Below, piece by piece: positions 3,389-59,917 of a stretch of DNA of 64,000 nt; position 1 is the stretch's first letter; every line of letters starts with the position of its first letter. This DNA is from a virus (lineage: Duplodnaviria; Caudoviricetes). Position numbers and translations under genes: made by a program. The stretch lies in the IMG/VR virus record IMGVR_UViG_3300024346_000003; one strand, written 5' to 3'. Below the pieces are notes generated by a model. It saw only the letters and a list, made by a program, of their open reading frames with translations. It did no database searches and was not told the DNA's origin.

Positions 3389-4210
3389 ATGAAAATTAGT
3401 GTAAACAGAGAGGTTTCTACCCCTCAAGCATTTATTGCTGTAAACAAAAGTAGAATTAAACAATATAATAAGTTAAATGAGACCCCAACTTATTATCTTC
3501 AAAAGGGGCAAGAATTCCAATTAGAATTATTTAATCCAACAACTGGGACTATTTTAGCTAAAATATTCTTAAATGGTAATGCTATATCACAAGGTGGACT
3601 TGTTTTAAAGCCAGGACAGCGTATTTTCCTTGATAGATACATCGATGTAGCCAAAAAGTTTTTATTTGATACCTACGAGGTCTCAAATACAAATGAAGTT
3701 AAAAAAGCTATTGAAGATAATGGTGATTTTAAAGTTGAATTCTATAAAGAATTTGTATTACAAGTTAAACCTAACTATTTTAGTGGTAATATTGGGACTA
3801 CAACTATTACTTACGTAAATAATAATCTAACAGATGGTACTTATAATCTTCCAGTTAATAATAATACTTTAGGGTTTTATGATACCCAATCACTATACTC
3901 AAATACAAAATTAAATGCAAATATAAATTTAAATTCTTTTAAGGGACCAAATATTAGAAGTAAAAAAAGTTTAACTAGGTCAATTGAAACTGGTAGAGTT
4001 GAACAAGGTTCACAATCAAGTCAAAAACTAACAACTGTTAATATGAATTGGGAAATTTATCCTTTCCATACCTTGGAGTATAAAATGCTACCATTATCTC
4101 AAAAAATAAACACATCTGAAGATATCAATATAAAACGATATTGTACAAACTGTGGTGCTAAACTAAGTAAGGGACATAAATTTTGTTCTAGTTGTGGCAC
4201 AAAAGCTTAA
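3389..4210 (+). CDS. hypothetical protein with C-terminal zinc ribbon
   Basis: CTNCG...KFCSSCG double CxxC at C-terminus. Confidence 0.75.
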   Translation: MKISVNREVSTPQAFIAVNKSRIKQYNKLNETPTYYLQKGQEFQLELFNPTTGTILAKIFLNGNAISQGGLVLKPGQRIFLDRYIDVAKKFLFDTYEVSNTNEVKKAIEDNGDFKVEFYKEFVLQVKPNYFSGNIGTTTITYVNNNLTDGTYNLPVNNNTLGFYDTQSLYSNTKLNANINLNSFKGPNIRSKKSLTRSIETGRVEQGSQSSQKLTTVNMNWEIYPFHTLEYKMLPLSQKINTSEDINIKRYCTNCGAKLSKGHKFCSSCGTKA

Positions 4211-4286: not shown

Positions 4287-4820
4287 TTAACTATTTTGTA
4301 TTTGATTGATTCGCTCTTTTTTTCTAACTATCTCTTCTTTATTCTGTGCTATAACACCAAAACGGTCCGCATATGTCCCATTTTTAAACTCTACTTCCAG
4401 AGAAGCAGTTTCTTTTTCTAATTGTTTAATTTGACGCTGTAATGATTTAATAGTCTTAATATCTTCTGGACGTAGGATACCTACCTCTTTACGTTCCCAA
4501 TATAATTCTGGTGGATTACCTACTTCAACTTTTGTAATACCTTTATCATCATAATACGCAAAATAAGGCCTACCATGTTCTGTATGACCTATTAACCCTT
4601 CACTTCGGTTGATTATAGATTTTAAAAAAGAAGCTTGTTTTTCACTTTTAAACATACCATTATTATTTTTAGCCAACCCTAATACAGACATTTTTAAATC
4701 AGTAAAATTTTCGGATAAAACATCTTTACTATTTTGAACCAACCCTTTTGATTCTAAATATCTTTGTTCAGCTAATAAATTTACTTTTTCTATATTAGTT
4801 GTTTTATCAAATCTTCTCAT
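4287..4820 (-). CDS. hypothetical protein, putative head-internal
   Basis: 177 aa ORF, MRRFDK...LLAEQRYLES N-terminus, TATTTATA motif upstream (4833-4840). Confidence 0.65.
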   Translation of the reverse strand: MRRFDKTTNIEKVNLLAEQRYLESKGLVQNSKDVLSENFTDLKMSVLGLAKNNNGMFKSEKQASFLKSIINRSEGLIGHTEHGRPYFAYYDDKGITKVEVGNPPELYWERKEVGILRPEDIKTIKSLQRQIKQLEKETASLEVEFKNGTYADRFGVIAQNKEEIVRKKERINQIQNS

Positions 4821-44761: not shown

Positions 44762-44958
44762 AATTAAAAATTTTAAGTTGTTTTAAATAGACAATACAAA
44801 TATAGGTATTTTATTTTGATTGTGCAAATTTTTGTGTAATTATTTTCGTGTAGTTATTAACATTTTTTTGTTGAAAAGTATATGTTAAATAATTAGGATA
44901 TGTTAAATATTATTTGTACCTTTGCAAAATTTTTCATATATGTATTTTTTTTTTATAA

Positions 44959-45001
44959 GGTAGGTCGGAGTCTACTCTCCTATTACTTTCGTACTAGCCC
45001 C
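44959..45001 (-). ncRNA. dispersed structured small RNA, copy 1
   Basis: GGGGCTAGTACGAAAGTAATAGGAGAGTAGACTCCGACCTACC after TATATTTG promoter, no ORF. Confidence 0.65.
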
Positions 45002-45069
45002 TTTCTTTGTTATAACAAATATAGGAATAAAAAATGGTACTACCAAATTATAGTACCATTATTTTTAAT

Positions 45070-45303
45070 TTATTTTGATAAAGTTTTTAGCTCAGCTTTT
45101 ATGCGTTTTGCCGTTTCACCTTTCCAAGTGTTAGCGTTACATAGGAAGTAAATAACGATACTTTTACCACTGTCCCAGCCGTACTTATCGTTAACCGATG
45201 TTAAGCTTTCCATAGCTTCTAAATAAGGTTTTGCGGCGTAATTAGGTTTAACCCAATCTTTTTTAATTTCACTTGCGATTTGATAAAGAGGTCTTGCGTT
45301 CAT
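45070..45303 (-). CDS. hypothetical cassette protein
   Basis: own promoter; MNARP start. Confidence 0.7.
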   Translation of the reverse strand: MNARPLYQIASEIKKDWVKPNYAAKPYLEAMESLTSVNDKYGWDSGKSIVIYFLCNANTWKGETAKRIKAELKTLSK

Positions 45304-45366
45304 AATATACATTGTTTTAAATTAGACAATACAAATATAAGTAATTTATTTCATATTTCCAAATAA

Positions 45367-45621
45367 TTACACAATTACTTTATTGTTATTTTCCCAAGCC
45401 CCCATATCTTTTGATTTATAGATTTTAAACCAATCGATATTTTGAATATCTTTTGAATCAACTAATTTACATGATAGATTAAATAATGAATGTGGCATTC
45501 TCCAATTAAGGGCATACCTAGATTTAATTGAATCTGATGCATTTTTAATCCATGTATGAAACAATTCTGTTCTTGTTTCAATATCATTAGCACCATTGAA
45601 TATTTCCTCTGCGTTAAACAT
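45367..45621 (-). CDS. hypothetical cassette protein
   Basis: own promoter; start reassigned. Confidence 0.55.
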   Translation of the reverse strand: MFNAEEIFNGANDIETRTELFHTWIKNASDSIKSRYALNWRMPHSLFNLSCKLVDSKDIQNIDWFKIYKSKDMGAWENNNKVIV

Positions 45622-45720
45622 AATATATTGTTTTAAATTAGACAATACAAATATAAGAATACTATTTCAATTATCCTAATTATTTAACAAAAAAAAAGGG
45701 ACTTTTTGTCCCCTTTAATT

Positions 45721-45996
45721 TTAGCTTTGTCCTTGTCGATAATTGTTACAATGGTTTCTATCAAATAGTTTATTTAATGTTTTGGTATGTTTTGTTTTTT
45801 TATGGTGTTTTTTATAGTTAAACCCATTTTTAGGTTTATCTTTTTTGATTTTAAAATTCTCAAAGATAATTGGTTTATCCTTTATTGAAATTTTGGTCAC
45901 TATTGAATTTTCGATTTTTGTAACGTTTAGCATTTCAGTTGCTAACAATTGTGTAGTAAAAAACGACACTAACAAGAACATAATTAAATTTTTCAT
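45721..45996 (-). CDS. secreted/basic hypothetical protein
   Basis: signal-peptide-like MKNLIMFLLVSFF; own promoter. Confidence 0.6.
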   Translation of the reverse strand: MKNLIMFLLVSFFTTQLLATEMLNVTKIENSIVTKISIKDKPIIFENFKIKKDKPKNGFNYKKHHKKTKHTKTLNKLFDRNHCNNYRQGQS

Positions 45997-46059
45997 TTTT
46001 AAACGATTTAAATTAGACATGAAACAAAGATAAGTAATTTATTTTAATCTACCAAACTT

Positions 46060-46230
46060 TTAGTAAGTTTTTTTTGATTTATTTTGACAATAAAAAGCAT
46101 CAATAAATGTAGTTAAACCTACAAGCATTCCAAATACTGAAATTGCACCAAGAATTGGTTCGTTAACATAAGCGCACAATGTGAACAAAGTTGTTGATAA
46201 TACTAAAGTAATTAAAGAGATAGTTTTCAT
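46060..46230 (-). CDS. small two-TM membrane peptide (56 aa, below ORF-track cutoff)
   Basis: hand-translated MKTISLITLVLSTTLFTLCAYVNEPILGAISVFGMLVGL...; own promoter. Confidence 0.55.
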   Translation of the reverse strand: MKTISLITLVLSTTLFTLCAYVNEPILGAISVFGMLVGLTTFIDAFYCQNKSKKTY

Positions 46231-46334
46231 AATGTATGTATTTTAATTAGACAATACAAATATAAGTAATTTATTTCAATCCACCAAATAAAATAGGATA
46301 ATTATTTTATTTATTTTAATCTTTTTTTTTATAA

Positions 46335-46382
46335 GGTAGGTCGGAGTCTACTCTTCTGCTACCTTTTTGAAGTATCAGCCCC
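46335..46382 (-). ncRNA. dispersed structured small RNA, copy 2
   Basis: GGGGCTGATACTTCAAAAAGGTAGCAGAAGAGTAGACTCCGACCTACC after TATCTTTG. Confidence 0.65.
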
Positions 46383-46450
46383 TTTTGTTAAAACAAAGAT
46401 AAGGATAAGTTTTCACTTATCCAAATCTTTTTTGATTTATTTTTGATTTT

Positions 46451-46720
46451 TTATTCAGCCACTAAAGTTAGTCTGTACTGCTCTAACTTTTCAGCGATGA
46501 CATCAGCGCCACCCTTAACCCCGAAGTAACGTTTAACGTCTGTTATCTTCCAAAATCTGTGAGGTTTGATACCTTTGCTATATAACTTGCAATCTCTAAT
46601 TGAAAGGATTAAGTTCCAATATGCTCTGCTAGTTTCAGCACCATTAACACTCAAACCATTTCCGAAGTCAGCTTCGAATTGCGTTCCTTTGATTTCCTTT
46701 AAAAATGTTTCCTTTTTCAT
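46451..46720 (-). CDS. hypothetical cassette protein
   Basis: own promoter; MKKETF start. Confidence 0.7.
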   Translation of the reverse strand: MKKETFLKEIKGTQFEADFGNGLSVNGAETSRAYWNLILSIRDCKLYSKGIKPHRFWKITDVKRYFGVKGGADVIAEKLEQYRLTLVAE

Positions 46721-46870
46721 AATACGTTGTTTTAAATAGACAATACAAATATAAGTAATCTTTTTCAATATTCCAAATAAAATAGGATAATTATTTTATT
46801 TATTTTTTTTACTTAAAAATTAGGTTATATCATTTATTATTCTTATCTTTGTTATGTACCAATAAGGTAA

Positions 46871-46917
46871 GGGGCTGAGCCGAGAGGAACAGAAGAGTAG
46901 ACTCCGTCACGTCTATA
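46871..46917 (+). ncRNA. dispersed structured small RNA, copy 3
   Basis: GGGGCTGAGCCGAGAGGAACAGAAGAGTAGACTCCGTCACGTCTATA after plus-strand TATCTTTG. Confidence 0.65.
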
Positions 46918-47003
46918 CTTTTCCTTTGGATAAAAATGTTAAATAATTAGGATATCTTATTTATTATTATTATATTTGTAGTATCAATTTAAAATCAACA
47001 ATT

Positions 47004-47222
47004 ATGAAAGTATTAAGAGAAGTTGGTGATGTTAAACTTAATGAAGGTCAACTAATGGCTAAAGGTTTAAATAATCTATACAACGAAAAAACAGGTCAAT
47101 TATCATTATGGTTTGATAATGAAGTTAAGGACTCCTTAATGAAATTACCCGATGATATATTTTTAGAAGTGGTTAGGGTTCATTTTGAACATGCCGAAGT
47201 TGGGCAATATAATCCAAACTAA
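47004..47222 (+). CDS. hypothetical protein
   Basis: plus-strand TATATTTG promoter upstream; GGGGGC..GCCCCC terminator downstream. Confidence 0.65.
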   Translation: MKVLREVGDVKLNEGQLMAKGLNNLYNEKTGQLSLWFDNEVKDSLMKLPDDIFLEVVRVHFEHAEVGQYNPN

Positions 47223-47275
47223 TATAAAAGTAGATTAAATAAATAAGGGGGCTAAATTGCCCCCTTTCTTTCGTG

Positions 47276-47297
47276 CGTATACACGAATGTGTACATA
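47276..47297. repeat. TACAC-N4-GTGTA palindrome, copy 1 (also 52511, 60174)
   Basis: CGTATACACG(AA/TT)TGTGTACATA in three intergenic sites. Confidence 0.7.
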
Positions 47298-47308
47298 GTG
47301 GGTGTATG

Positions 47309-47596
47309 CTATTGAGCACACAACCCCCAAGGTTCAATCTTATCAATGTTTCGCCCATTCAAATTAAGTTCCTTGCAAATGAATTTAGCAAGTTTCTTAT
47401 TTCCTGGTGTTCCTTCTGAAATTTCACCCGTTTTAATTTGTTGGACAACGTATGACGGTTCCATACCCAATACTCTTGAACAAAACTTAACGTCTTGCCC
47501 TAAATAAAAAGACTTAGTTTTTGTCTTTGTTGATACAACCAACGACCAATTGTGGTCGAATCCGTAATTGCTAGTAATCTTAATTTCTGCGTTCAT
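47309..47596 (-). CDS. hypothetical cassette protein
   Basis: own promoter; MNAEIK start. Confidence 0.7.
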   Translation of the reverse strand: MNAEIKITSNYGFDHNWSLVVSTKTKTKSFYLGQDVKFCSRVLGMEPSYVVQQIKTGEISEGTPGNKKLAKFICKELNLNGRNIDKIEPWGLCAQ

Positions 47597-47670
47597 AATA
47601 CTTTGTTTTAAAGTGACAATACAAATATAAGAAATAAAAACGACACTACCAAATGATAGTGCCATTATTT

Positions 47671-47901
47671 TTAAATTTCACAAATTCTTATTCCGAATTC
47701 CGTTTCAACATAAACTAGTTCTTCAATAGAACCACCTTTAACTTCATTAATAACGTAATCGAGTTCGTCTATTGGATAATCCCAAAGTGTTACATCTAAA
47801 ATTTCTTCTGCAAATTCTTGTATGTCTTCAAGTTTTAGGTTTTTGGTTTCTTCATAACCTATTCGCTTTGCATACTCTTGTAATGAAATAGTTTCTAACA
47901 T
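47671..47901 (-). CDS. hypothetical acidic cassette protein
   Basis: own promoter. Confidence 0.65.
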   Translation of the reverse strand: MLETISLQEYAKRIGYEETKNLKLEDIQEFAEEILDVTLWDYPIDELDYVINEVKGGSIEELVYVETEFGIRICEI

Positions 47902-48159
47902 ACTTTCTAAGTTTTAAAGTGACAATACAAAGATACAAATATAAAATGGTATTTCCTAATTTAATTCCACTTTTTTTGTTTATGTTTATCTTTTCTTGTA
48001 TAAGCTTTTTTTGACTTATGAACAGAATGACGCATTGCTTGTTGCAATTCGTGTTGAGTAATTTCGATAGTTTGAAGTTTCATAACTTATATTGTTTTAA
48101 TTAGACAATACAAAGATAAGGATAACTTTTCAATTATCCAAATCTTTTGTTAATTATTT

Positions 48160-48477
48160 TTACATTGTATGAACATCATCTGTTATACTAAACGATATAT
48201 CTCCATTTGCATCAACCTTGTTAGACACTAAACGAACAAGTGAGCTTTGCAAGTTACTTAATGAATTATACTTTTCGTATTTAATTCCTTTTGGTGTTCG
48301 TGCCCAAAGATTAGCACCCCATGAAGAAATTTTGCAATCAGGTTTACCACTTCTATCTGCCAATACAACGTGAAACGTGTAAGGCTTATCAGATAAGTGA
48401 ATGATAATTTGTTTTGCACCATTATATAATTGGTCCAAAGTTACCTCTAATGATTTTAATGTGTTTAACGTTTTCAT
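48160..48477 (-). CDS. hypothetical cassette protein
   Basis: own promoter. Confidence 0.7.
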   Translation of the reverse strand: MKTLNTLKSLEVTLDQLYNGAKQIIIHLSDKPYTFHVVLADRSGKPDCKISSWGANLWARTPKGIKYEKYNSLSNLQSSLVRLVSNKVDANGDISFSITDDVHTM

Positions 48478-48565
48478 ATCTTATTGTTTTAAAGTGACAA
48501 TACAAATATACAAAATAAAAATGACACTACCAAATGATAGTGCCACTTTTTTTGTCAATCTAAAA

Positions 48566-48958
48566 CTAATCTAAGGTATTAAAGTAATCGTGTTTCATAT
48601 TTGAAAGTGCTGAATATATGGTTTGGGAACCAATATCTTTACCTTCTTCATTTTTAATGGGTGTATTTCGTTTCAATATTTCCTTATATTCTTTATCATC
48701 GTAAATAAAACTTAAAAAGTCTATAATATGTCGTTTGCGATAATATTCAATTTGACTTGAAATGAATTTTTCAATAACTCTAGCAATTTGATAACTAGCT
48801 ACTGTTGAAATAACACCAATAATAATAACTAAACTTAACATAGCAAAAGTTGAGCTAAGTTCTATAAAAATTGGTGCGAACGATACTATTGTAATCGTTG
48901 TTGAAAATACAGCGATTATCGCTTTAAGTAATTTTGATTTTTCTACAAAGTTTAACAT
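48566..48958 (-). CDS. two-TM membrane protein
   Basis: two hydrophobic helices; own promoter. Confidence 0.65.
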   Translation of the reverse strand: MLNFVEKSKLLKAIIAVFSTTITIVSFAPIFIELSSTFAMLSLVIIIGVISTVASYQIARVIEKFISSQIEYYRKRHIIDFLSFIYDDKEYKEILKRNTPIKNEEGKDIGSQTIYSALSNMKHDYFNTLD

Positions 48959-49312
48959 AATTTTCTGTTTTAATTGGTTAAGACAAATATACAAATATAA
49001 AATGATATTTCCTAATTTATTTTAAAGTATTATTCATTTCCGTAGCCAGTTATTGATGCAATAATAAAAACCAACCCCATTACGATATAATCAAGTGCTT
49101 TTTTCATAATTATCTTTTTAATTCAATTATTAATGCTCCCACCAATACTGCAATAACTACTATTACTATTGCTGCAATAAAACCTACTACCATAACTTAA
49201 GATTTTCTAATTTTAGTATCAAATGCTAAAACCACTGCGAATAAAAATATAACTGCTAATGCGCTCATAACTTTTTGTTTTAAAGTGACAATACAAATAT
49301 AGGTAAAATATT

Positions 49313-49789
49313 CTACACTTCCAAATGTTTTACCAATATTTTTTTAATTTGTTTATTGTCACTTCTATCAAACGTATTATTCCATCTACCTTTGTATTTT
49401 GACTTAAGCATACTATCTAAAATAGTAAACGGCATATCAACAGAATGACAATGACTAAAAATTGGGTGCATTGTTAAATCATCGAAAAATCCTTTGCTAT
49501 CAATATAAAACACTTTCTTTGATGTTTTAATTGTTACCATTACGTGTGACCAATCTGTTTTGAACAAATCAATTATAGCCTTATTTGCAATATGTCTGTT
49601 ACTTTCGTAAACGCTATGTTCACGAACTAATAAAACCAATTCAGGTTTAAACCCTTTCTTAGTCAATACATTGTAAATGTGTTTTGCAACGAAACCACAA
49701 CCACCACTATTAACATATCTAACTGAATTATCAATCTCATCGAATGATGATAATAAAGACTTTTTAATTTTAGCATTTAAGAATCCCAT
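49313..49789 (-). CDS. papain/transglutaminase-like fold protein (Cys-His-Asp)
   Basis: NSGGCG..A, WSHVMV, YIDSKG spaced like a catalytic triad. Confidence 0.45.
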   Translation of the reverse strand: MGFLNAKIKKSLLSSFDEIDNSVRYVNSGGCGFVAKHIYNVLTKKGFKPELVLLVREHSVYESNRHIANKAIIDLFKTDWSHVMVTIKTSKKVFYIDSKGFFDDLTMHPIFSHCHSVDMPFTILDSMLKSKYKGRWNNTFDRSDNKQIKKILVKHLEV

Positions 49790-49918
49790 AACTATTTGTT
49801 TTAAAGTGACAATACAAATATAAGAATATAAAACGATATAACCTAATTTTTAATTAAAATAATTTATCTTATTTTATTAGGATATATCAAATATTTTCCT
49901 TACCTTTGTTTTGTCGAT

Positions 49919-49967
49919 GGGGCTGACACGAGAGTGGTAGTAGAGTAGACTCCTTGGGATACCTACT
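49919..49967 (+). ncRNA. dispersed structured small RNA, copy 4
   Basis: GGGGCTGACACGAGAGTGGTAGTAGAGTAGACTCCTTGGGATACCTACT after TACCTTTG at 49901. Confidence 0.65.
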
Positions 49968-50038
49968 ACAAATTTGAGCCAACAAATAAAAAAGAGGGAT
50001 TTCTCCCTCTTCTCATCAACCAACTTAAAACAACAACT

Positions 50039-50296
50039 TTATACTGCGATAACCCAATCAGTAACCTCCCAATTCACGCTTGATGATACGCTATACCCTT
50101 TCTCTCTCAATCTTTGAGCAACAATAGGCATATACATATACTCTTCAACACTCCAACCATAGCTTGGTGCACATTGTGCCGTTTCAAACTTGGTAGTTAA
50201 ATACTCACCCCCTAATCGGCTTTCAATTCGAGCCATTAATTCATTAATGAATAACTCTTTTCTTTCTTGCGGTGTTAATGTTTTTGTTTCTGACAT
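50039..50296 (-). CDS. hypothetical cassette protein
   Basis: own promoter. Confidence 0.65.
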   Translation of the reverse strand: MSETKTLTPQERKELFINELMARIESRLGGEYLTTKFETAQCAPSYGWSVEEYMYMPIVAQRLREKGYSVSSSVNWEVTDWVIAV

Positions 50297-50504
50297 AATA
50301 CTTTGTTTTAATTAGACAATACAAATATAAGAATATAAAACGATATAACCTAATTTTTATTTATCTTTTTCAAGTGAAACATTAAAAATAGTTCCAAATA
50401 TGTTTTCAAATATTGATTTAACATATAAGGTCTCTTTAATAGTTGTCTCATTATAGCACAACTCACCCTCATTATTGATATATAGATTTGAATTTTCCAT
50501 TTTA

Positions 50505-50822
50505 TTAATTGTTATAAGTTACCATTACTGAATCACTACAAAGAAAAACACTACAAGCAGTCAATTTCTCCATTGCCGTTTTAATAACGTATGTTCTAAC
50601 TAGAAAATAAGATTTGTCTTGCTCAACTTGGAATTGTGTTCTACCAACGAAGTCAAATAAGCCCTCCTCAATGATTGTATCCATTTTCTTAATGGAATTC
50701 ATTCCAAACAAATAATAAGCCATTAGGTTTGGGAAATCGTAGTTCTCTACTAATTGTCCGATTGAATACTGTCTTGAATAAAATTCAATTTCAGATTTTG
50801 GATAAGAATAATTTGCTTTCAT
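50505..50822 (-). CDS. hypothetical cassette protein
   Basis: own promoter. Confidence 0.65.
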   Translation of the reverse strand: MKANYSYPKSEIEFYSRQYSIGQLVENYDFPNLMAYYLFGMNSIKKMDTIIEEGLFDFVGRTQFQVEQDKSYFLVRTYVIKTAMEKLTACSVFLCSDSVMVTYNN

Positions 50823-50896
50823 AATGTATGTGTTTTAAATAGACAATACAAATATAAGTAATTTATTTCAATCTACCAAATATAAAACGATATTTT

Positions 50897-51121
50897 TTAT
50901 ATTGGTGAAATTTGATGTCCCTTTGCCCAATGACCATTATCAAGGTCAACGACAATTCTATCTGTATATTTCCAAAAAACTTGGTCTACAGGTTCCCCAT
51001 ACTTTTCACCAGCTTTGCATAGTTCAATACCCGTCACTTTCGCTTTGAGTGGTGCAGCACCACCAAATCCACCTCGCCACATTACTTGGTCACCAACCTT
51101 AAGTGTAATTTTATTTGCCAT
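50897..51121 (-). CDS. small SH3/KOW-like beta protein
   Basis: LKVGDQVMWRGGFG...AKVTGIE; start reassigned to MANK. Confidence 0.6.
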   Translation of the reverse strand: MANKITLKVGDQVMWRGGFGGAAPLKAKVTGIELCKAGEKYGEPVDQVFWKYTDRIVVDLDNGHWAKGHQISPI

Positions 51122-51206
51122 TTCGTTTCGTTTTAAATTAGACAATACAAATATAAAACAAAAAAATGACACTACCAAATTGTAGTGCCACTTTTTTTAA
51201 TTATTT

Positions 51207-51974
51207 TTACTTTACTGAAAATTCAGCTTTGTAAATTTTAACCAAGTGGTCATAAAACTCACCCTCATTTTCACTGAATTTCATGTGGGCAATTTTAAGT
51301 GCTTCTGACGTTTTTAAAATTGCTTCTGACATTCTATTGTAATCTTTACAAAGTCGCATAATTTTGTATAAACTTCTGCGAACAAATGCCTTGTCAGGTA
51401 TTGCATTTTTAACTAACATAACCGCATCCAATAATTCCATGCTATCAGCCTCATTAACAAAAGTCATCTCACCACTAGTGAATACTTTACGGTTATTTGA
51501 ACCAATAAAGATAAATAACAAGTCAGTCATAGTTAAACCTGTTTTTGTTTTTAATTCACTCATGATTATATATTCACGAATACCATTTGATTGGTATGAA
51601 TCCATGTAGATTTTTGGTGACCAACCCGCAGATGTATTATTTAATGTAGCAATGTACTTTGTTAAATTCAATTTTGAGTCAGATAACAACTCAACAATCA
51701 AAACATGAATAGGTAGTTCAAGTCGTTGTGCTGCTAAAAATCGATGTTGACCGTCAGCAATATAGTATTCAATTTTACCACTAATTGATTTAGTTTTAAC
51801 TACTGTAATAACCACAGAACCCGAACCAAACTTTTTAAAACTATCAACAAGTTTATTTACGTGTGATTCACGTGTGTTTCTGTTTGTACCTTTAAGTAGT
51901 TTGTACTTTGAAAAGTCAGTACAATTTGAAATAAATTCAACAAATACCGATAATGGAAGATTTTTGTTACTCAT
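51207..51974 (-). CDS. ParB/Srx-like (DGQHR) domain protein
   Basis: NR...HVNKL..S...YYIADGQHRFLAA. Confidence 0.7.
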   Translation of the reverse strand: MSNKNLPLSVFVEFISNCTDFSKYKLLKGTNRNTRESHVNKLVDSFKKFGSGSVVITVVKTKSISGKIEYYIADGQHRFLAAQRLELPIHVLIVELLSDSKLNLTKYIATLNNTSAGWSPKIYMDSYQSNGIREYIIMSELKTKTGLTMTDLLFIFIGSNNRKVFTSGEMTFVNEADSMELLDAVMLVKNAIPDKAFVRRSLYKIMRLCKDYNRMSEAILKTSEALKIAHMKFSENEGEFYDHLVKIYKAEFSVK

Positions 51975-52126
51975 AACGTTTATGTTTTAATAATTAGACA
52001 ATACAAATATAAGTAAACTATTTCAATCTACCAAATAAAATAGGATAATTATTTATTTATTTTTTTGTATAAAAATTAGGATATATCATTTATTATCCTT
52101 ACCTTTGTTATGTACCCGATAGGTAT

Positions 52127-52175
52127 GGGCTGACACTCACAAGGTGGTAGTAGAGTAGACTCCGTCACGTCTATA
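52127..52175 (+). ncRNA. dispersed structured small RNA, copy 5
   Basis: GGGCTGACACTCACAAGGTGGTAGTAGAGTAGACTCCGTCACGTCTATA after TACCTTTG at 52100. Confidence 0.65.
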
Positions 52176-52250
52176 TATGACCTGGACCAAAAAATACATT
52201 ACAGTAAACTATTTAGTGTAAACTAAATTAGGAAATATGGTTTTATATTA

Positions 52251-52448
52251 TTATCTTTGTGACAATCTAATAAGTTGGCGTTGTATGAAATCAACATCTT
52301 TCTGACCATCATCAACCGATTGTTCATCTTTTCGCTTATAAGCATTGAATAGTTTAGTCTGTGCTTTTTTAAGCATACTTAACCAACCTTCATACTCACT
52401 CATTCCTGAGTTTTGTAGTCCAACATTTTTATCTATTAATTTATCCAT
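52251..52448 (-). CDS. hypothetical protein
   Basis: 65 aa helical ORF. Confidence 0.5.
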   Translation of the reverse strand: MDKLIDKNVGLQNSGMSEYEGWLSMLKKAQTKLFNAYKRKDEQSVDDGQKDVDFIQRQLIRLSQR

Positions 52449-52611
52449 CTTAAATAATAATATAATATAAATATACGAATAATATATTAAATATGCAAAT
52501 TATACACGCACGTATACACGAATGTGTACATAACAACAAAGGAGATATCTCTATCTCCCTTGCTGTTCTTTGTCTGTCTATTAAAACAACCTTACACGTT
52601 GTATCTTTGTC

Positions 52612-53061
52612 TTATTCGACCAAATCAAAGATTAATTCTGTATATCCTTTTGGAATGTCAGCTTTTCTACTTTCAATTGAAATAGTATCTCTAGCCCAAC
52701 TTCCAACTAAATCACTTTCACCTCTAAAGTCACCACCACCTCGACCATTACCCTCGCAAGTTAACAATGGTAGTGGGTGAATTTTCCAACCGTCACCATC
52801 TGCTGGTACCTTTGTTTTATCAACAAATTGTTTTTTGTCGTGGTTAACAATGTACTTCGCTTTTGCAATTGGTAATATTTTAAAGTCTCTAGTGTTTGGA
52901 CTTAACTTTGGCGCTGAACATTCAGCAATACTTTGTGTATTCGCACCCGATTTTTCCAAATCTTCCAAACTGAAACCTTGCTCAACTAGCATAGGGATTA
53001 CTTCTTTAGGTATGTTTTCAAACGGTTCCTCATCTGCTTTATTCCAACTAAAACTTCCCAT
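52612..53061 (-). CDS. hypothetical cassette protein
   Basis: YIVNHDKKQFVD...HPLPLLTCEGNGRGGGDF; own promoter. Confidence 0.75.
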   Translation of the reverse strand: MGSFSWNKADEEPFENIPKEVIPMLVEQGFSLEDLEKSGANTQSIAECSAPKLSPNTRDFKILPIAKAKYIVNHDKKQFVDKTKVPADGDGWKIHPLPLLTCEGNGRGGGDFRGESDLVGSWARDTISIESRKADIPKGYTELIFDLVE

Positions 53062-53136
53062 AGGATATATTTTTTGTTTGTTTTAACAAAGATAAGGATA
53101 ATATTTCAATTATCCAAATCTTTTGTTAATTATTTT

Positions 53137-53436
53137 TTACCACTGAAATTCAGTTTTAAACGATACCTTTGACTCAATCCAATCCAATACCTCACCAGCA
53201 TAGTAAGACGTTGTTAAATCGAATAAAAACCAATCAACTTTGCTTCTAGCATCAGGTTCGTCAGTCATCACTTCCAAACGTGTAAATTCTTTTGCTTTAC
53301 TTTGGTCGCTACCTTTAGTACTACCTTTTGAATAGTCCCATACTTTACCAATAACTGTTACTTTCTTTGCAGTCGTTTCAACGGTAATAATACCTCCTTT
53401 GCAGTATTCACCAATCTTAAATGTTTTTGTTGCCAT
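53137..53436 (-). CDS. hypothetical cassette protein
   Basis: own promoter; MATK start. Confidence 0.7.
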   Translation of the reverse strand: MATKTFKIGEYCKGGIITVETTAKKVTVIGKVWDYSKGSTKGSDQSKAKEFTRLEVMTDEPDARSKVDWFLFDLTTSYYAGEVLDWIESKVSFKTEFQW

Positions 53437-53509
53437 GTTATATGTTTTTAAATTAGACAATACAAATATAAAACAATATAATGATATATCCTAATTATTC
53501 TTTAAATAA

Positions 53510-53773
53510 TTATTTTTCGTTGGTGCAAATAGTATCACCATTACCGTTGTATAACTCAACTGTTGATTGATTACCATTTTCTTCAATTGTCATTTGTTCG
53601 GAAGTTTCAAGTAATAATTCACTATCATGTGCAATTCTATCTTCAAATTCTGTAAACATATCCTCAGAACTAGATACTATACCATTCTTTATTTTTTCGG
53701 AAACCTTATCAATATTTTCATCATCGAAATATACTCGTTCCCAAATCGTAACTTTAAAATCTACATAAGCCAT
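53510..53773 (-). CDS. hypothetical cassette protein
   Basis: own promoter. Confidence 0.65.
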   Translation of the reverse strand: MAYVDFKVTIWERVYFDDENIDKVSEKIKNGIVSSSEDMFTEFEDRIAHDSELLLETSEQMTIEENGNQSTVELYNGNGDTICTNEK

Positions 53774-53813
53774 AATAATACGTTTTTAAATTAGACAATA
53801 CAAATATAAGAAT

Positions 53814-54074
53814 TTAATTTGGCAAATCCAAATTTATATGAATATAAGACATAAAATAATCATGAGCGTTAATAAATTGGTTATTATATTCGTCCATAAA
53901 ATCACTCAAACGTAATATCGTTATTTTATCATAAAGTGAAATATTATCGTTCAATTTTTGATTAATAGTTTCTACAACCCCAACTCTGCTATCAAATTTT
54001 TGATTTTCAATTTCCTCACAAGTTTTTCTTGCTCTATAACATTTAACCGAAATAAGTACCACACAAGTTTCCAT
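53814..54074 (-). CDS. hypothetical protein
   Basis: second gene of two-gene cassette. Confidence 0.6.
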   Translation of the reverse strand: METCVVLISVKCYRARKTCEEIENQKFDSRVGVVETINQKLNDNISLYDKITILRLSDFMDEYNNQFINAHDYFMSYIHINLDLPN

Positions 54075-54086
54075 AATAATATCCTT

Positions 54087-54287
54087 TTAAATAATAGTTA
54101 AAATGTCTTGTGGAACAATATCAATCAATCCACCTTCATATTGAACATAAACCAATTCTTCATCATCACTTGGTTCTGAACATACAATAGCAATTGAACT
54201 CATTTCACTACGGAAAGGTTCTGTACATTCGTCAGTTAAATAACATTCAGCTATCTCAACTTTAATACCCTCTTTAAACTCGCTCAT
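54087..54287 (-). CDS. hypothetical cassette protein
   Basis: own promoter. Confidence 0.6.
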   Translation of the reverse strand: MSEFKEGIKVEIAECYLTDECTEPFRSEMSSIAIVCSEPSDDEELVYVQYEGGLIDIVPQDILTII

Positions 54288-54345
54288 AATATTTTGTTTT
54301 AATTAGACAATACAAATATAATAATATAAAATGATATATCCTAAT

Positions 54346-54645
54346 TTATTCTGAAATTTTATACAACATTAAAGTATATTCTTCTGTACTAGCATACCAA
54401 CCTCTTTTGTTGCACCATTTGTCAAATTTGATATAAACATCAATATCGTAATTCTTGTTATTGTATATGCGATTATCCAATGCACTCAAAGGGTTTGTAT
54501 CTTTGTCTGTGTATGGTACACTAGAGCCATTACGCAACCATATAGATTGATTAGGTTTATAATCTTTACTAAACTCACTACCACATTTAATTTCTAAGGT
54601 AGGAAATCGTTTTTGTAATTCAAATATAATTTCAGTGAAGTTCAT
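54346..54645 (-). CDS. hypothetical cassette protein
   Basis: own promoter. Confidence 0.65.
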   Translation of the reverse strand: MNFTEIIFELQKRFPTLEIKCGSEFSKDYKPNQSIWLRNGSSVPYTDKDTNPLSALDNRIYNNKNYDIDVYIKFDKWCNKRGWYASTEEYTLMLYKISE

Positions 54646-54822
54646 AATACTTTGTTTTAATTAGACAATACAAATATAAAACAATATAATGATATATCCA
54701 AATTATTTAACAAAAAAAAATGGAAACATTTCTGCTCCCATTTCTTTGTTCTTTGTTTGTCAACTTAAAACTCACCATTATGGTTTGCTTATCTTTAATT
54801 TCTATTATATAAATACTTTAGT

Positions 54823-55268
54823 AAAAGAATATGGGAGGTGGTTGTACATCCACCCCCCATTACTCCTTGTTCCATACCAAGTGCGCACCCGATACTTTAT
54901 TTTCCGCTGAACAAAGCGTTTCCATTTAAGTCCCATAATCGGCAACCAAGAGCACTCATCTTGTTAGAGTTACGCTTCAAGAGGTCATCTCGTTAGAGTT
55001 ACGCATTGAGACTATCTCATCTCGTTAGAGTTACGCATAACACTTATCATCTTACCCCACACAGAATGTGGTTACGAATCAATCCATTTCCTTTACTTAC
55101 GTAAAACAGTGATGGGTGTGTCAGAGGCTGTATCTCGTCTTGTTAGGTCTAAGAGGCTGTATCTCGAACCTGTTACATTATCGCTAGGCTGTTCTCATCT
55201 TGTTAATGATTGAAGCTACCGAGGACTTAAACTTCTACTATAGTATGTTAAAGAACGTTTTCCTTTTG
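54823..55268 (-). ncRNA. ~440-nt internally repeated ncRNA candidate
   Basis: TATCTTTG promoter at 55274-55281; no ORF of 60 aa or more on this strand; six TAAC(A/G)AGA(T/C)GAG-like repeats; GC-rich terminator hairpin 54833-54858. Confidence 0.6.
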
Positions 55269-55336
55269 TTTAACAAAGATAAGTAATTTATTTTAAACTA
55301 CCAAATCTTTTTGCAATTATTTTTAATTTTTTTTTG

Positions 55337-55439
55337 TAGTCAGGACAGGATTCGAACCTGTGAATCCTCGGACTAAATACTAGACTACCACCTGAGGACC
55401 TCTTTCTAGTTAGCGTTAATCCATCTCCGCCACCTGACT
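55337..55439 (-). ncRNA. tRNA-like RNA A with 20-nt expanded anticodon loop
   Basis: AGTCAGG/CCTGACT acceptor, GCG/CGC D-arm, ACAGG-TTCGAAT-CCTGT T-arm. Confidence 0.7.
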
Positions 55440-55526
55440 ATTTGTTATTCAAAGAACTTTAACAAAGATAAGTAATTTATTTTAAACTACCAAATCTTTT
55501 TGCAATTATTTTTAATTTTTTTTTTG

Positions 55527-55601
55527 TAGTCAAAATAGGATTCGAACCTATGTAACGATGTCTCTAATAGGACATCTGCTTTGCCACTCGGCCACTTGAC
55601 T
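55527..55601 (-). ncRNA. tRNA-like RNA B with non-canonical 8-nt anticodon loop
   Basis: AGTCAAG/TTTGACT acceptor, GATGTC-CTATTAGA-GACATC arm, ATAGG-TTCGAAT-CCTAT. Confidence 0.65.
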
Positions 55602-55688
55602 ATTTGTTATTCAAAGAACTTTAACAAAGATAAGTATTTTATTTCAATCTACCAAATCTTTTTGCAATTATTTTTAATTTATTTTTTG

Positions 55689-55746
55689 TGAGCGTTATGG
55701 AATCGAACCATACCGTATGACTCGCCATTGCTAACCCTAGACGCTC
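55689..55746 (-). ncRNA. minimal tRNA-like RNA (acceptor + T arm)
   Basis: GAGCGT/ACGCTC stem stacked on TATGG-TTCGATT-CCATA; under 30 nt between them. Confidence 0.5.
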
Positions 55747-55769
55747 TAGGCGTGCACACCTATTTGTAG

Positions 55770-55890
55770 TAGTCAGGACAGGATTCGAACCTGTATCAAC
55801 AGAATGTGTAACTACCTGTTATATTAAGCATTGTAGATTCGAACCACTCACTCTCTAGGCCTGTTGACTTACCAATTTGTCCACCTGACT
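55770..55890 (-). ncRNA. tRNA-like RNA C with 58-nt insert containing a second T-loop
   Basis: AGTCAGG/CCTGACT, GAC/GTC D-arm, AACAG/CTGTT stem enclosing GTGG-TTCGAAT-CTAC. Confidence 0.7.
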
Positions 55891-55976
55891 ATTTGTTATT
55901 CAAAGAACTTTAACAAAGATAAGTAAACTTTTCCAATCTACCAAATATTTTTGTAATTATTTTTAATTTATTTTTG

Positions 55977-56048
55977 TGACCCGACCAAGATTCGAACTTG
56001 GAATAGAAGATTAGAAATCTTCTGTGATATCCCTTTCACCATCGGGCC
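55977..56048 (-). tRNA. tRNA-Arg(TCT)
   Basis: GGCCCGA/TCGGGTC acceptor, GAAGA-TT-TCT-AA-TCTTC anticodon arm, CCAAG-TTCGAAT-CTTGG. Confidence 0.92.
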
Positions 56049-56111
56049 AAATAAGGGTTGTTCGAACTCCCTAAAAACCTCACCTAAGTTTTTTCTATGG
56101 ATATAGAAAAA

Positions 56112-56188
56112 TGGTGGTCCAACTTGGACTCGAACCAAGGACTTCAACATTATGAGTGTTGCACTCTAACCAACTGAGTTATAAGACC
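56112..56188 (-). tRNA. tRNA with CAT anticodon (elongator Met or Ile2), encoded CCA
   Basis: ACTC/GAGT D stem, CAACA-CT-CAT-AA-TGTTG, CTTGG-TTCGAGT-CCAAG, ACCA 3' end. Confidence 0.92.
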
Positions 56189-56294
56189 GTTTGAGTCTTA
56201 CCCCTCTAAACATTGATGCATTATCTAGAGGGGTTTTTATTAAGCGAAGACCACCGCTATACAAATATAGTAATAAATATTTAATCTTGCAAAT

Positions 56295-56810
56295 TTATTT
56301 AAACATAATTGTTGCAATTGTTAAAGGTGTTCTTGGAATTGGTGTTGAACCACAATTAAACCCAATGATTTCAAACTGTGCAATATCTTTACTTCCATTG
56401 CTAATCGGTTCAATTGGTGAATCGTGGAAAGCAATATCAGCACAATTAGCCATTTCAATTACAGAAATTGTAATTCTTTTACCACCCTTTGTTCTAATCG
56501 AAATTGTTTCATTCGAATTCTCACATTGAATAAATTGGTGTGGAAATTCTCTATTGAATATTGCGAACCCTTTGAACGCATAAATGATTTGCATCATCTG
56601 TGGTAAGAATTTTTCACTATTCACATCGTTTGACTTGTTAGTCACGATACCGAAATTTTCATCAGGGTTGCAGTTGTTGATTGCCCAAATGAATGAAGCT
56701 AAATCTCTAACTGTTGCGGTGTAATTGTTATTCATTTTTACATAATAACCATCAGACAAAATAATGTCCTTAACATTGCTTGGAATCTCGTACTCAAATT
56801 GCTTGTTCAT
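56295..56810 (-). CDS. hypothetical cassette protein
   Basis: 171 aa; own promoter. Confidence 0.7.
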   Translation of the reverse strand: MNKQFEYEIPSNVKDIILSDGYYVKMNNNYTATVRDLASFIWAINNCNPDENFGIVTNKSNDVNSEKFLPQMMQIIYAFKGFAIFNREFPHQFIQCENSNETISIRTKGGKRITISVIEMANCADIAFHDSPIEPISNGSKDIAQFEIIGFNCGSTPIPRTPLTIATIMFK

Positions 56811-56884
56811 AATGTATGTGTTTTAATTAGACAAAACAAAGATAAGGATAAGTTTTCACTTATCCAAATCTTTTTTCAACTTTT

Positions 56885-57094
56885 TTAAATTGCTCTTGAT
56901 TGCTCAATAAGTTTCAAAATTTCCTCAACTGATTCAGCAACCTGATAACCACCATTGTTATGTGAATCGTGCTTTAATCTCGTACTTATACCATCTTCAA
57001 GTGGATACATACCTTGAATACCATTGACACTTAAAACCATTTTTGTTTTTTTACGGTAATTGTTGGTTACTGAGATAAATCTAATGTTGCTCAT
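56885..57094 (-). CDS. hypothetical cassette protein
   Basis: own promoter. Confidence 0.65.
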   Translation of the reverse strand: MSNIRFISVTNNYRKKTKMVLSVNGIQGMYPLEDGISTRLKHDSHNNGGYQVAESVEEILKLIEQSRAI

Positions 57095-57170
57095 AGTATA
57101 TTGTTTTAATTATTAGACAAAACAAAGATAAGGATAACTTTCCAATTATCCAAATCTTTTTACAATTATT

Positions 57171-57638
57171 TTAAAACTTTTTTGAAACGTGTTCGTGGTC
57201 AAGTATTCTTGTAATATCTCTAATAATATCCATTAGGTTTGCACTAACTTCTGTAAAGTTAATTACTACCTCAATATGCCCATGACAATGGTTTGGATTT
57301 TCAATACTCATAAATGCTTTATCTCCTTTGCAAGTATCGTACTTATCAGTTATCCAACCCAAGTTCCATTCGGGTCTTGCACCCTTTCTGTAACCCAACA
57401 TTTTTGTTCTGAATCTACAACCATTCTCATCAGCAGTAAAAAATATAGTATCAATGTAGTTACTTTGTTTTTTAATACGATAGGTTGTACTATTCTCATC
57501 ATCACGATTAGATACATACAAAGTATATACTTGACCCAAATCATTGATAAGTCGTCTTAAGAACTCTTTGTTCTTTTTGATTCTGTTGATTTTTTCAACT
57601 TCTGTGTTCCCGATTGCTTGTAATACTAAATTTTCCAT
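57171..57638 (-). CDS. hypothetical cassette protein
   Basis: own promoter. Confidence 0.65.
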   Translation of the reverse strand: MENLVLQAIGNTEVEKINRIKKNKEFLRRLINDLGQVYTLYVSNRDDENSTTYRIKKQSNYIDTIFFTADENGCRFRTKMLGYRKGARPEWNLGWITDKYDTCKGDKAFMSIENPNHCHGHIEVVINFTEVSANLMDIIRDITRILDHEHVSKKF

Positions 57639-57726
57639 TTTCGTTTGTTTTAATTAGACAATACAAATATAAGAAAAAAAAATGACACTACCAAATGATA
57701 GTGCCACTTTTTTTTAAATTAATTTT

Positions 57727-58086
57727 TTAACATTCAGCTTCAAAACTACATTGTCCGTTTTCAATGATACAATCACGAATCTGTTTGCCCAAACCTAAAT
57801 CTGCATAATCACGCAATTCATCTTGAGTAATTCCAGCTTCTTCCAACATTTTGTCGTTGTAACCATTTCGTTCCTCAAAGAACTTATCAATTAGTTGCAA
57901 CTTGTCACCCAAACTTTCCTCAATGTTTTTGATTTCTTCCTCAACACCCTCAAGGTCTTCCTCACCAAAATAATAAGTTATAATGTTTGGTTGTTCACCT
58001 GTAACACCAAATCTGTCTGCGGCATCACTATCTTGCAATGCAAACCAAAACTTTCCGTCAATGTCACCACTATAATAACGTCCCAT
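57727..58086 (-). CDS. hypothetical cassette protein
   Basis: MGRYYSGDIDGKFWF; own promoter. Confidence 0.75.
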   Translation of the reverse strand: MGRYYSGDIDGKFWFALQDSDAADRFGVTGEQPNIITYYFGEEDLEGVEEEIKNIEESLGDKLQLIDKFFEERNGYNDKMLEEAGITQDELRDYADLGLGKQIRDCIIENGQCSFEAEC

Positions 58087-58144
58087 AATAATATGTTTTT
58101 AAATTAGATTACAAATATAAGTATTTTATTTCAATCTACCAAAT

Positions 58145-58390
58145 TTATTTTGAACAATCTTTACATAAATCTTGGTCATTTATATCAAATACCATTTCAC
58201 CCTTGATAAAACCACCACCACAATTATCACAACAATACTCATTCTCATATTGTACCCATTCCTCCTCAGGTAAATATCCTATAAGGTATTTTCTTGGTAC
58301 AAATGATAATAGTTCGTCTATTACAGTAAAATCACCACCATTAATATCGTTTTGTATTACCTCAATTACTCTATCAATTAATTTGCTCAT
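58145..58390 (-). CDS. hypothetical protein with CxxC...CxxC
   Basis: CDNC...CKDC; start reassigned to MSKL. Confidence 0.65.
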   Translation of the reverse strand: MSKLIDRVIEVIQNDINGGDFTVIDELLSFVPRKYLIGYLPEEEWVQYENEYCCDNCGGGFIKGEMVFDINDQDLCKDCSK

Positions 58391-58539
58391 AATATATTGT
58401 TTTAAAGTTATACCACAAAGATAAGGATAACTAATTACCCACACAACATACTATAGTTAGCATTTAAAATAATATAAAATAATATTAAATAAATTAGGAT
58501 ATGTCATTTATTATCCCTACATTTGTTTTGTCGATGGAC

Positions 58540-58584
58540 GGGCTGACACTCACAAGGTGGTAGTAGAGTAGACTCCGACCTACC
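58540..58584 (+). ncRNA. dispersed structured small RNA, copy 6
   Basis: GGGCTGACACTCACAAGGTGGTAGTAGAGTAGACTCCGACCTACC after TACATTTG at 58518. Confidence 0.65.
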
Positions 58585-58708
58585 TTATATTTTTTTTTAA
58601 ATATATAAAAAAAATTTGCAAAGGTACAAAATAAAATCGACCTATGCAAATTTTTAATGAAAAAGTTATTAACAAAATGGTGGGGGTATTTTTCAACCCC
58701 CTTTCCAT

Positions 58709-59596
58709 TTATGCCATTACCAAGCCTAACTTGTCAAGGGCAAACTGTAACCCTTGTTCGTTAGTTCGGTAGTTAGTACCCGTCATCATGCTTTCCTCAC
58801 GTCCATTCTCTCTACGTGGTGCTGACTTTTCGTGTGTAGTCCATGAAGTAACCCCACTAAACAAACCAAACAAGTTGTCACCCTTCTGATTTGTCTCCTT
58901 CTTAATGTGACCATACAACGTCTCCATTGCATTCAAAGAACGTGTTGACAATTCACTTTCCGTCTTGATAGACATAGTCTTGTCAAACCCTAAAATGTGA
59001 CGTACCATTTCGTCCGCCAAACCTTTTGTCAAAGGTGTTGATTGGAAATGCTTATACGTTTCAGTCAATTTAAGACTCTCTAACAACGCCATTTCAATAA
59101 GGTAAGGTATTTCCTTAATACGTTGTGTTAAACTCGCTGTATGGCGAAGTTTTGACTGTCCACTTTTGTAGAACTTAAAGAACTGATTAGAACATGACAT
59201 AACCAATTCACCAATACCAACTGATAAACCCGTAGAACCGTCATTACTGTCGATAATAGTAACATATCTTTTGATACGTTCGTCACCAACTTTTGACATT
59301 CCGTCAATTCCCAATTGAAGGAACACTTTACGTCCTCCATTCAAAGCACCCGCTTTTGTTACAGATAACTCACCAAACCCTTTAATACCGTTAAGTACTA
59401 ATTCCACAATCTCATCGTTTTGAGACACTGTATACCCTTCTTTAACAGAATTGATACACTCACCCGTCTTGTCATTGAACAAGCCGAAAAATGGCGTTTC
59501 TTTGCCCGTAGCAGAAAGCAATCTTTCTTTCTCAATACGGAAATCCAAGTTGTGCGCTACTAAGATTTCATTCACTTTGTTGTTTACTTCGCTCAT
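58709..59596 (-). CDS. DUF932 (TIGR03299-like) family protein
   Basis: YTVSQN...AGALNGGRKVFLQ...YVTIIDSNDGS...CSNQ...LFGLFSGVTSWTTH. Confidence 0.75.
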   Translation of the reverse strand: MSEVNNKVNEILVAHNLDFRIEKERLLSATGKETPFFGLFNDKTGECINSVKEGYTVSQNDEIVELVLNGIKGFGELSVTKAGALNGGRKVFLQLGIDGMSKVGDERIKRYVTIIDSNDGSTGLSVGIGELVMSCSNQFFKFYKSGQSKLRHTASLTQRIKEIPYLIEMALLESLKLTETYKHFQSTPLTKGLADEMVRHILGFDKTMSIKTESELSTRSLNAMETLYGHIKKETNQKGDNLFGLFSGVTSWTTHEKSAPRRENGREESMMTGTNYRTNEQGLQFALDKLGLVMA

Positions 59597-59781
59597 AATA
59601 AAAAGTTTTAAATGATTAACAGTACAAATATAATAATACTATTCCATATAAACAAATAAAAAACAATATATTTTTAATTTTTTTTTCATACCTTAATAAT
59701 TGCGCACGCATGTATACAAAATAAAAATGATATATCCTAATTTTTTTTGTTAAATTATCGCATATCGCAATACGCAATAAT

Positions 59782-59828
59782 GGCCTACCAAGGAGTCTAC
59801 TCTCTCACATGCTTGCGACATGCGACCC
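59782..59828 (-). ncRNA. dispersed structured small RNA, copy 7 (divergent)
   Basis: GGGTCGCATGTCGCAAGCATGTGAGAGAGTAGACTCCTTGGTAGGCC after TATATTTG. Confidence 0.6.
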
Positions 59829-59917
59829 GTCTTATTGACAATACAAATATAAAACAAAAAAACCACATATCCTAATAATACATGGTTTTTTTATTAACTA
59901 TTTTATTCGTATCTTTG

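Follow-up and report, generated by a model that had tools for sequence, protein, structure and literature searches.

Seven repeated units in the window

The DNA analysed here is a 64-kb stretch of viral sequence (IMG/VR record IMGVR_UViG_3300024346_000003), referred to below as the window, in which a short element is repeated seven times. The repeats were confirmed as real copies of an undescribed small structured RNA gene, which is multicopy, has its own promoters and lies among early genes of many Bacteroidota phages. The window encodes a major head protein, a portal, a T4-type large terminase, a ClpB-like ATPase, NAMPT and ThyX, together with four transfer RNA (tRNA) genes found by ARAGORN and Rfam, and, as read from its sequence, it is part of a large phage. 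Its terminase is about 31% identical to those of Flavobacterium myophages and of T4-like cyanophages, and megablast found no close relatives of the window among deposited phages. Between 44 and 64 kb it holds small unknown open reading frames (ORFs) in series, mainly on the minus strand. A promoter module, TTAGGATATATCAT...TAnnTTTG, which is of the −33/−7 promoter type of Bacteroidota, occurs about 22 times in the window (6 expected) and recurs through the 44–64 kb region, for example at 52076–52107.

The common order of the units is a TAnnTTTG box, 10–19 nt, GGG, a hairpin of 7–9 bp, one base, the 12-mer AGAGTAGACTCC and a tail:

44951–45023, minus strand: unit 1, TATATTTG box (45016–45023), 14-nt leader, GGG, GAAA-loop hairpin, AGAGTAGACTCC (44967–44978), tail CCTACCTTATA, then an A-run.
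46327–46401, minus strand: unit 2, TATCTTTG box (46394–46401), GGG, hairpin CTGATAC/GTAGCAG, 12-mer (46343–46354), tail CCTACCTTATA, A-run; another promoter stands before the next gene.
46844–46921, plus strand: unit 3, TATCTTTG box (46844–46851), 5′ hairpin GTACC/GGTA, GGG, GAGA-loop hairpin, 12-mer (46894–46905), tail GTCTATAC, T-rich run; next promoter motif at 46947.
49901–49969, plus strand: unit 4, TACCTTTG box (49901–49908), GGG, GAGA-loop hairpin, 12-mer (49942–49953), tail CCTACTAC.
52100–52179, plus strand: unit 5, TACCTTTG box (52100–52107), 5′ hairpin GTACC/GGTA, GGG, hairpin CTGACAC/GTGGTAG, 12-mer (52152–52163), tail GTCTATAT.
58518–58598, plus strand: unit 6, TACATTTG box (58518–58525), GGG, hairpin CTGACAC/GTGGTAG, 12-mer (58565–58576), tail CCTACCTTATA, T9; converges on the DUF932 gene (58709–59596).
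59776–59851, minus strand: unit 7, TATATTTG box (59844–59851), GGG, unrelated stem TCGCATG/CATGTGA with GCAA loop, 12-mer (59792–59803), atypical tail; next promoter motif at 59727–59740, before the DUF932 gene.

The 12-mer is exact at all seven sites, and no further site was found in the window at up to two mismatches; the mean number of AGAGTAGACTCC sites in the shuffled window was 1.55, and none of 100 shuffles reached seven. A covariance model built on homologues recovered the same seven units (E-values from 1e-10 to 4e-18, with the next match at E 0.41). The geometry of the original prediction agreed with our reading: the distances from TAnnTTTG to GGG, claimed to be 10–19 nt in every copy, were 14, 11, 19, 10, 19, 14 and 15 nt in units 1–7, and GGG was found at 46871, 49919, 52127 and 58540. 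Also in agreement were the hairpins with their GNRA loops (GAAA, GAGA, GAGA and GCAA), the downstream CTAC or GTCTAT that six copies have, and the additional 5′ GUACC/GGUA hairpin in copies 3 and 5. The ORFs that overlap the units are all short and unconserved. The loop lengths among the units differ by non-multiples of three.

Selection acts on the transcribed RNA

Covariation in a larger alignment, the check proposed with the original prediction, was evaluated on 69 distinct copies. Changes on both sides were observed in six of the seven hairpin pairs (for instance, one pair is C-G in 46 copies and U-A in 16, and another is U-A in 39 and C-G in 17). None of 500 shuffles reached the observed covariation score of the hairpin, all slid controls collapsed, and an alignment made by MAFFT only, without the model, gave the same result. 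At the third hairpin pair, 32 copies have G-U and 30 have G-C; since G-U/U-G pairs outnumber A-C/C-A pairs 46 to 9 across the hairpin, the opposite strand would not fold. The loops are mainly of GAGA, GAAA and GCAA type, and one position holds a conserved purine-purine mismatch. Selection acts on the transcribed RNA, on the strand originally predicted, and the proposal of selection on RNA structure is borne out by the hairpin covariation, the strand-specific wobble pairs and the presence of a promoter of its own at each copy.

The pseudoknot proposed for the same RNA remains hypothetical and is not a family-wide feature. Its GGG:CUCC helix has no covariation support, altered GGG or CUCC segments are uncompensated, and GGG is missing in other subfamilies. 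The GUAG:CUAC pairing is possible in two registers and performs no better than a shuffled-tail composition control; because the purine-rich strand pairs with any U-rich tail, it is indistinguishable from shuffled tails. In each of the two proposed helices one strand is invariant. Two partners are open to the tail, the GUAG within the 12-mer and the 3′ hairpin strand, and covariation supports none of these alternative pairings.

Family-wide, the invariant part is GUAGACUCC, usually followed by NN-CCUACCUUAUA and often by a U-run. One subfamily lacking GGG reads AAAGCA-(ACC...GGU)-GAGAA-GUAGACUCC, in which ACC/GGU is replaced with compensation by AGG/CCU, and another GGG-less subfamily consists of a hairpin and AGACCGA-GUAGACUCC. 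Variants of the 12-mer are changed at the first three bases or at the A of GUAG. These patterns indicate that the core is a hairpin, a purine-rich linker, GUAGACUCC and usually NN-CCUACCUUAUA.

Distribution and genomic placement

The count of seven is correct for the window and understates a widespread phage family. About 30 true copies emerged when viral contigs were scanned with a pattern, together with GC-rich coding chance matches. In model searches of whole records from related uncultured phages, one 40-kb fragment proved to carry 13 copies and one of 52 kb carried 9, while fragments of 18 and 119 kb carried 6 each; in a complete 288-kb phage, which has terminal repeats, all nine copies lie in the first 36 kb. 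In a metagenome scan the element was present on at least 120 contigs from lakes, sea and sediment. Two cultured phages carry it, Tenacibaculum phage Larrie (four copies, three of them with AGGGTAGACTCC) and Cellulophaga phage phiST (three copies), where it lies in unannotated intergenic DNA or beside small hypothetical ORFs; single BLAST matches suggest that phi19:2 and phi13:1, relatives of phiST, carry it as well. The carriers thus span T4-like phages, siphoviruses (Larrie and phiST) and the metagenome contigs, among which the 12-mer is constant whereas the hairpin diverges.

The family was found in phages only. In bacterial genomes the exact motif was found only on short phage-like contigs of three Bacteroidota metagenome-assembled genomes (MAGs), and a model search of 40 Flavobacteriales and 150 Bacteroidota genomes returned no match except one phage-like MAG contig. 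In line with the claim that this is not a known family, no Rfam 15 model overlaps any copy, either at the gathering score or at E up to 10. A literature search with the 12-mer gave unrelated primer matches only, and topic searches gave nothing on the motif. Half-pattern scans of viral contigs for 12-mer variants returned only loci already carrying the 12-mer.

All viral-contig copies checked have TAnnTTT[GA] on the same strand 41–64 nt upstream of the 12-mer. In the metagenomic set, the Bacteroidota box is upstream of 115 of 147 copies and a CGTATAAT-type box of another 27; on contig L162 the latter type also stands ahead of each neighbouring small gene. At L162:4640–5220, every small gene is preceded by its own repeat of the promoter-like block ATTTACGTATAATCA, a second promoter dialect of the same cassette design. 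Where checked, the element fills a cassette slot behind the kind of promoter used by its neighbours. In phage Larrie, doubled TTTTGTTAAAA motifs, which may be a regulator site, lie about 90 nt upstream of the element promoters (L060:999–1064, 2860–2882 and 3488–3510).

The units are located between gene cassettes in either orientation, and most copies oppose both neighbours. Opposing copies stand back to back with the promoter of the next gene, as unit 4 does with that of the minus-strand gene at 49313–49789, and the divergent start codon lies at a constant 172–179 nt from the 12-mer, a spacing that recurs in many phages. For gene-oriented copies, a second promoter is usually found 48–121 nt downstream, before the gene. 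At several copies, among them units 1 and 6, a convergent promoter lies head-on at a constant +42 nt, an arrangement also seen in several homologues. The corresponding features in the window are:

44893–44928, plus strand: full early-class promoter TTAGGATAT...TACCTTTG, head-on to unit 1.
58615–58630, minus strand: TACCTTTG box facing unit 6, the convergent-promoter counterpart of 44893–44928.
49992–50014, no strand: GC hairpin GAGGGA/TCCCTC with A-run and T-rich flanks, read from the sequence; likely a terminator working in both directions, for RNA 4 and for the convergent minus-strand gene.

Downstream, about 40% of copies have a T-run 13 nt past the 12-mer; it begins there in about 20 of 47 copies on viral contigs, and 63 of 147 metagenomic copies contain a T-run. 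Other copies run into the terminator hairpin of the convergent gene, and some have an A-run instead of the U-run. These T-runs, and the fact that the element begins right after the promoter in every copy, favour a cis-acting leader or attenuator, that is, a riboswitch-like or protein-controlled terminator whose fold would decide between a stop at the U-run and read-through, either into the gene downstream or antisense to the convergent gene. The two pairing options of the tail would suit such a switch, the phiST copies stand directly ahead of small ORFs, and GP88 lies downstream in the same orientation in nine contigs. However, the predominance of copies opposing both neighbours, the second promoter that usually follows same-orientation copies, the A-runs replacing U-runs and the lack of covariation in the alternative pairings all speak against it, and we consider a cis-acting role unlikely. 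A leader position (same strand, no promoter between element and gene) was seen only in phiST, and the element in the window is not a leader. In phiST, a small ORF of about 15–47 codons follows each copy (L101:1540–1600, L102:1540–1680 and L104:1520–1600); these ORFs share an H-P/S-R/L-P/S-F-G/R motif, and one overlaps an opposite-strand hypothetical coding sequence.

The position at cassette borders in either orientation, along with the AT-rich T-run or A-run tracts after many copies, could also be accounted for by a DNA-level element, either a replication-origin or primer-RNA module or a single-strand hairpin recombination site marking the borders. Five contigs (L019, L028, L035, L045 and L048) add to this a palindrome and 4–8 iterons of about 19 bp within about 50 nt. 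On the other hand, the wobble-pair asymmetry and the GNRA loops indicate RNA, a same-strand promoter is always upstream in two promoter dialects, 13 origins in 40 kb are implausible, and no iterons lie beside the window copies; we regard this explanation as improbable. An integron attC-type single-strand DNA site in particular was rejected on the mixed orientation, the promoter always upstream and the excess of G-U over A-C pairs. The iteron arrays themselves, about 50 nt downstream of the element (L019:4561–4708, L035:6341–6513, L045:938–1026, L028:4619–4800 and L048:2429–2551), are also downstream of a large terminase gene and may be an origin or a packaging site. In many siphovirus-like contigs a palindrome of the type TTTAGAATCATTCTAAA, which looks like an operator, is found within 10–25 nt after the element (for example, L019 at about 4545–4565 and L162:4722–4745).

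The constant 172–179 nt spacing suggests copying of whole modules, and the early-promoter module is present about 22 times in the window; both would be expected if the element were a passenger of mobile promoter cassettes, spread by recombination and having little function of its own. Such cassettes are known in T4-type phages as PeSL (promoter-early stem-loop), reportedly described by Arbiol et al. in 2010, a PeSL unit being a promoter with a terminator-like stem-loop. They resemble the present arrangement in the T4-like phage setting, in the modular-copy spacing and in the early promoter, accompanied by hairpins, that recurs at the borders between cassettes of small early genes, but they are without a transcribed hairpin and a 12-mer invariant across phage families, both of which are found here. 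PeSL cassettes explain the repeated promoter module, not the invariant RNA. The 12-mer stays invariant next to a hairpin that gains compensated changes, and unrelated phage types share it; both points indicate that the RNA itself is under purifying selection, and a passenger role appears very improbable. Upstream of units 1 and 2, the promoter −33 region lies within a covarying hairpin (GGTACTA/TAGTACC, GGATAAG/CTTATCC), which resembles the PeSL design.

Proposed function and comparison with known systems

Starting from the observed repeat, promoter linkage, hairpin covariation, strand and phage restriction, our best guess, to which we give slightly less than an even chance, is an abundant early RNA that would act in trans and be recognised through its invariant segment. 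Each copy would be a self-contained small-RNA gene with a host-type early promoter, giving a transcript of about 50–75 nt that would often end at its own U-run or at the terminator of a neighbouring gene. The predicted order in the RNA is an optional 5′ hairpin, GGG, the variable GNRA-capped hairpin with its purine mismatch, (A)GA-GUAGACUCC and usually NN-CCUACCUUAUA, in which we infer that the hairpins serve as a scaffold and that the invariant segment forms the working surface. With many copies behind strong early promoters, the infected cell would be flooded with this RNA. A conserved partner would bind the invariant segment; a protein is the likeliest candidate, with the RNA as its decoy, sponge or cofactor, and a short RNA target is less likely. 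We rank such a trans-acting, partner-binding RNA first, followed by the cis attenuator, a seed-pairing small RNA, the DNA-level element and the cassette passenger. The decoy, anti-defence and ribozyme roles first suggested for the copies are speculative.

Several observations weigh against the trans-acting RNA. About 20 metagenome runs contain the window DNA, and no RNA run clearly contains it; metatranscriptome contigs were found for relatives only, at a depth of 3–5, and one of these may be DNA because it includes the promoter box. No neighbouring protein is constant, the commonest being GP88 (near 28 of 140 contigs) and DUF932 (near 22 of 140). The phiST elements lie, leader-like, 10–15 nt before small paralogous ORFs, and in five siphovirus-like contigs the element abuts an iteron array.

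The architecture of a hairpin, a conserved unpaired segment and a U-run would also suit a base-pairing small RNA, whose invariant segment would recognise host or phage RNAs as a seed, as in FopS/GibS or lambda oop. A fully complementary transcript would be made wherever a copy faces a convergent promoter, as several do, and multicopy small-RNA families are known in Bacteroides (PMC11697453). In five phage records all exact and nearly all one-mismatch matches to the 12-mer complement were element copies, and the remaining weaker matches were near control level. The 12-mer complement was not above control in the three MAGs, nor was the 9-mer complement in five host-order genomes, where no recurrent context appeared; searches of these lengths do not reach shorter seeds. 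We rate seed pairing just below the cis attenuator, and as doubtful.

The multicopy small RNAs FopS/GibS of Bacteroides thetaiotaomicron (PMC11697453) are the nearest described ones, differing in architecture and location. FopS is chromosomal and present in Rfam, and its single-stranded 5′ seed runs directly into a terminator (PMC11697453). Both families have many paralogous short RNA genes per genome, each with its own Bacteroidota-type promoter, and one conserved segment with the rest variable, and a FopS/GibS copy has also been seen in a phage; in the present family, however, the conserved segment is 3′ of a covarying GNRA hairpin, the copies were found in phage DNA only and no Rfam model matches. 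The family here also recalls a second system, lambda oop, in being a short promoter-to-terminator RNA against flanking genes, with a possible iteron origin nearby in some relatives, but it has many copies in both orientations, whereas oop is single-copy and works by overlapping cII.

Phage RNA decoys, namely RNA anti-CRISPRs (CRISPR, clustered regularly interspaced short palindromic repeats) and pseudo-ToxI, copy a known host repeat or antitoxin unit. They share with our element a small promoter-driven phage RNA and an invariant recognition segment made in quantity, the quantity being predicted here. The difference is that no host counterpart of the motif was found in the three MAGs and the 190 genomes (40 Flavobacteriales and 150 Bacteroidota), where we looked for a host mimic or host copy, and that the copies are not tandem. 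A type III antitoxin RNA (ToxI-like) was rejected because the copies are dispersed 0.5–6 kb apart with no tandem array of a unit. A hammerhead or hepatitis delta virus (HDV)-like core, a K-turn, a CRISPR repeat mimic and a middle promoter made of the 12-mer and TATA were dropped without support.

A bolder form of the trans-acting reading, which we hold to be unlikely, is a new class of phage RNA effector, in which a tiny early RNA, expressed in massive amounts, would use its invariant GUAGACUCC...CCUACCUU surface to trap a conserved host factor, for example a defence nuclease or a protein of the 16S 3′-end region of the ribosome. If true, the effector would be common to very different phage types infecting Bacteroidota, whose phages are abundant in oceans, lakes and guts. 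To our knowledge, roles have been assigned to few phage small RNAs, and from Bacteroidota phages hardly any such RNAs are known. The family combines a clear covarying structure, an unusually rigid conserved segment and up to 13 copies per 40 kb; its carriers include both T4-like jumbo phages and siphoviruses. Because two cultured pairs carry the element (Larrie/Tenacibaculum and phiST/Cellulophaga), bench tests are directly possible.

GGGGCUG...CAG...CUCC resembles, in our own reading, an alanine acceptor stem. A tRNA or transfer-messenger RNA (tmRNA) was rejected as an identity of the units, as ARAGORN and Rfam call only the tRNAs at 55.5–56.2 kb. Adjoining this tRNA cluster, a 32-nt tandem repeat (2.7 copies, 83% match) lies at 54955–55038. 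At 55526–55601 and 55770–55890, ARAGORN reads one tRNA with a four-base anticodon (atta), and a 121-nt tRNA match, possibly an interrupted tRNA, is called by Rfam without an ARAGORN call.

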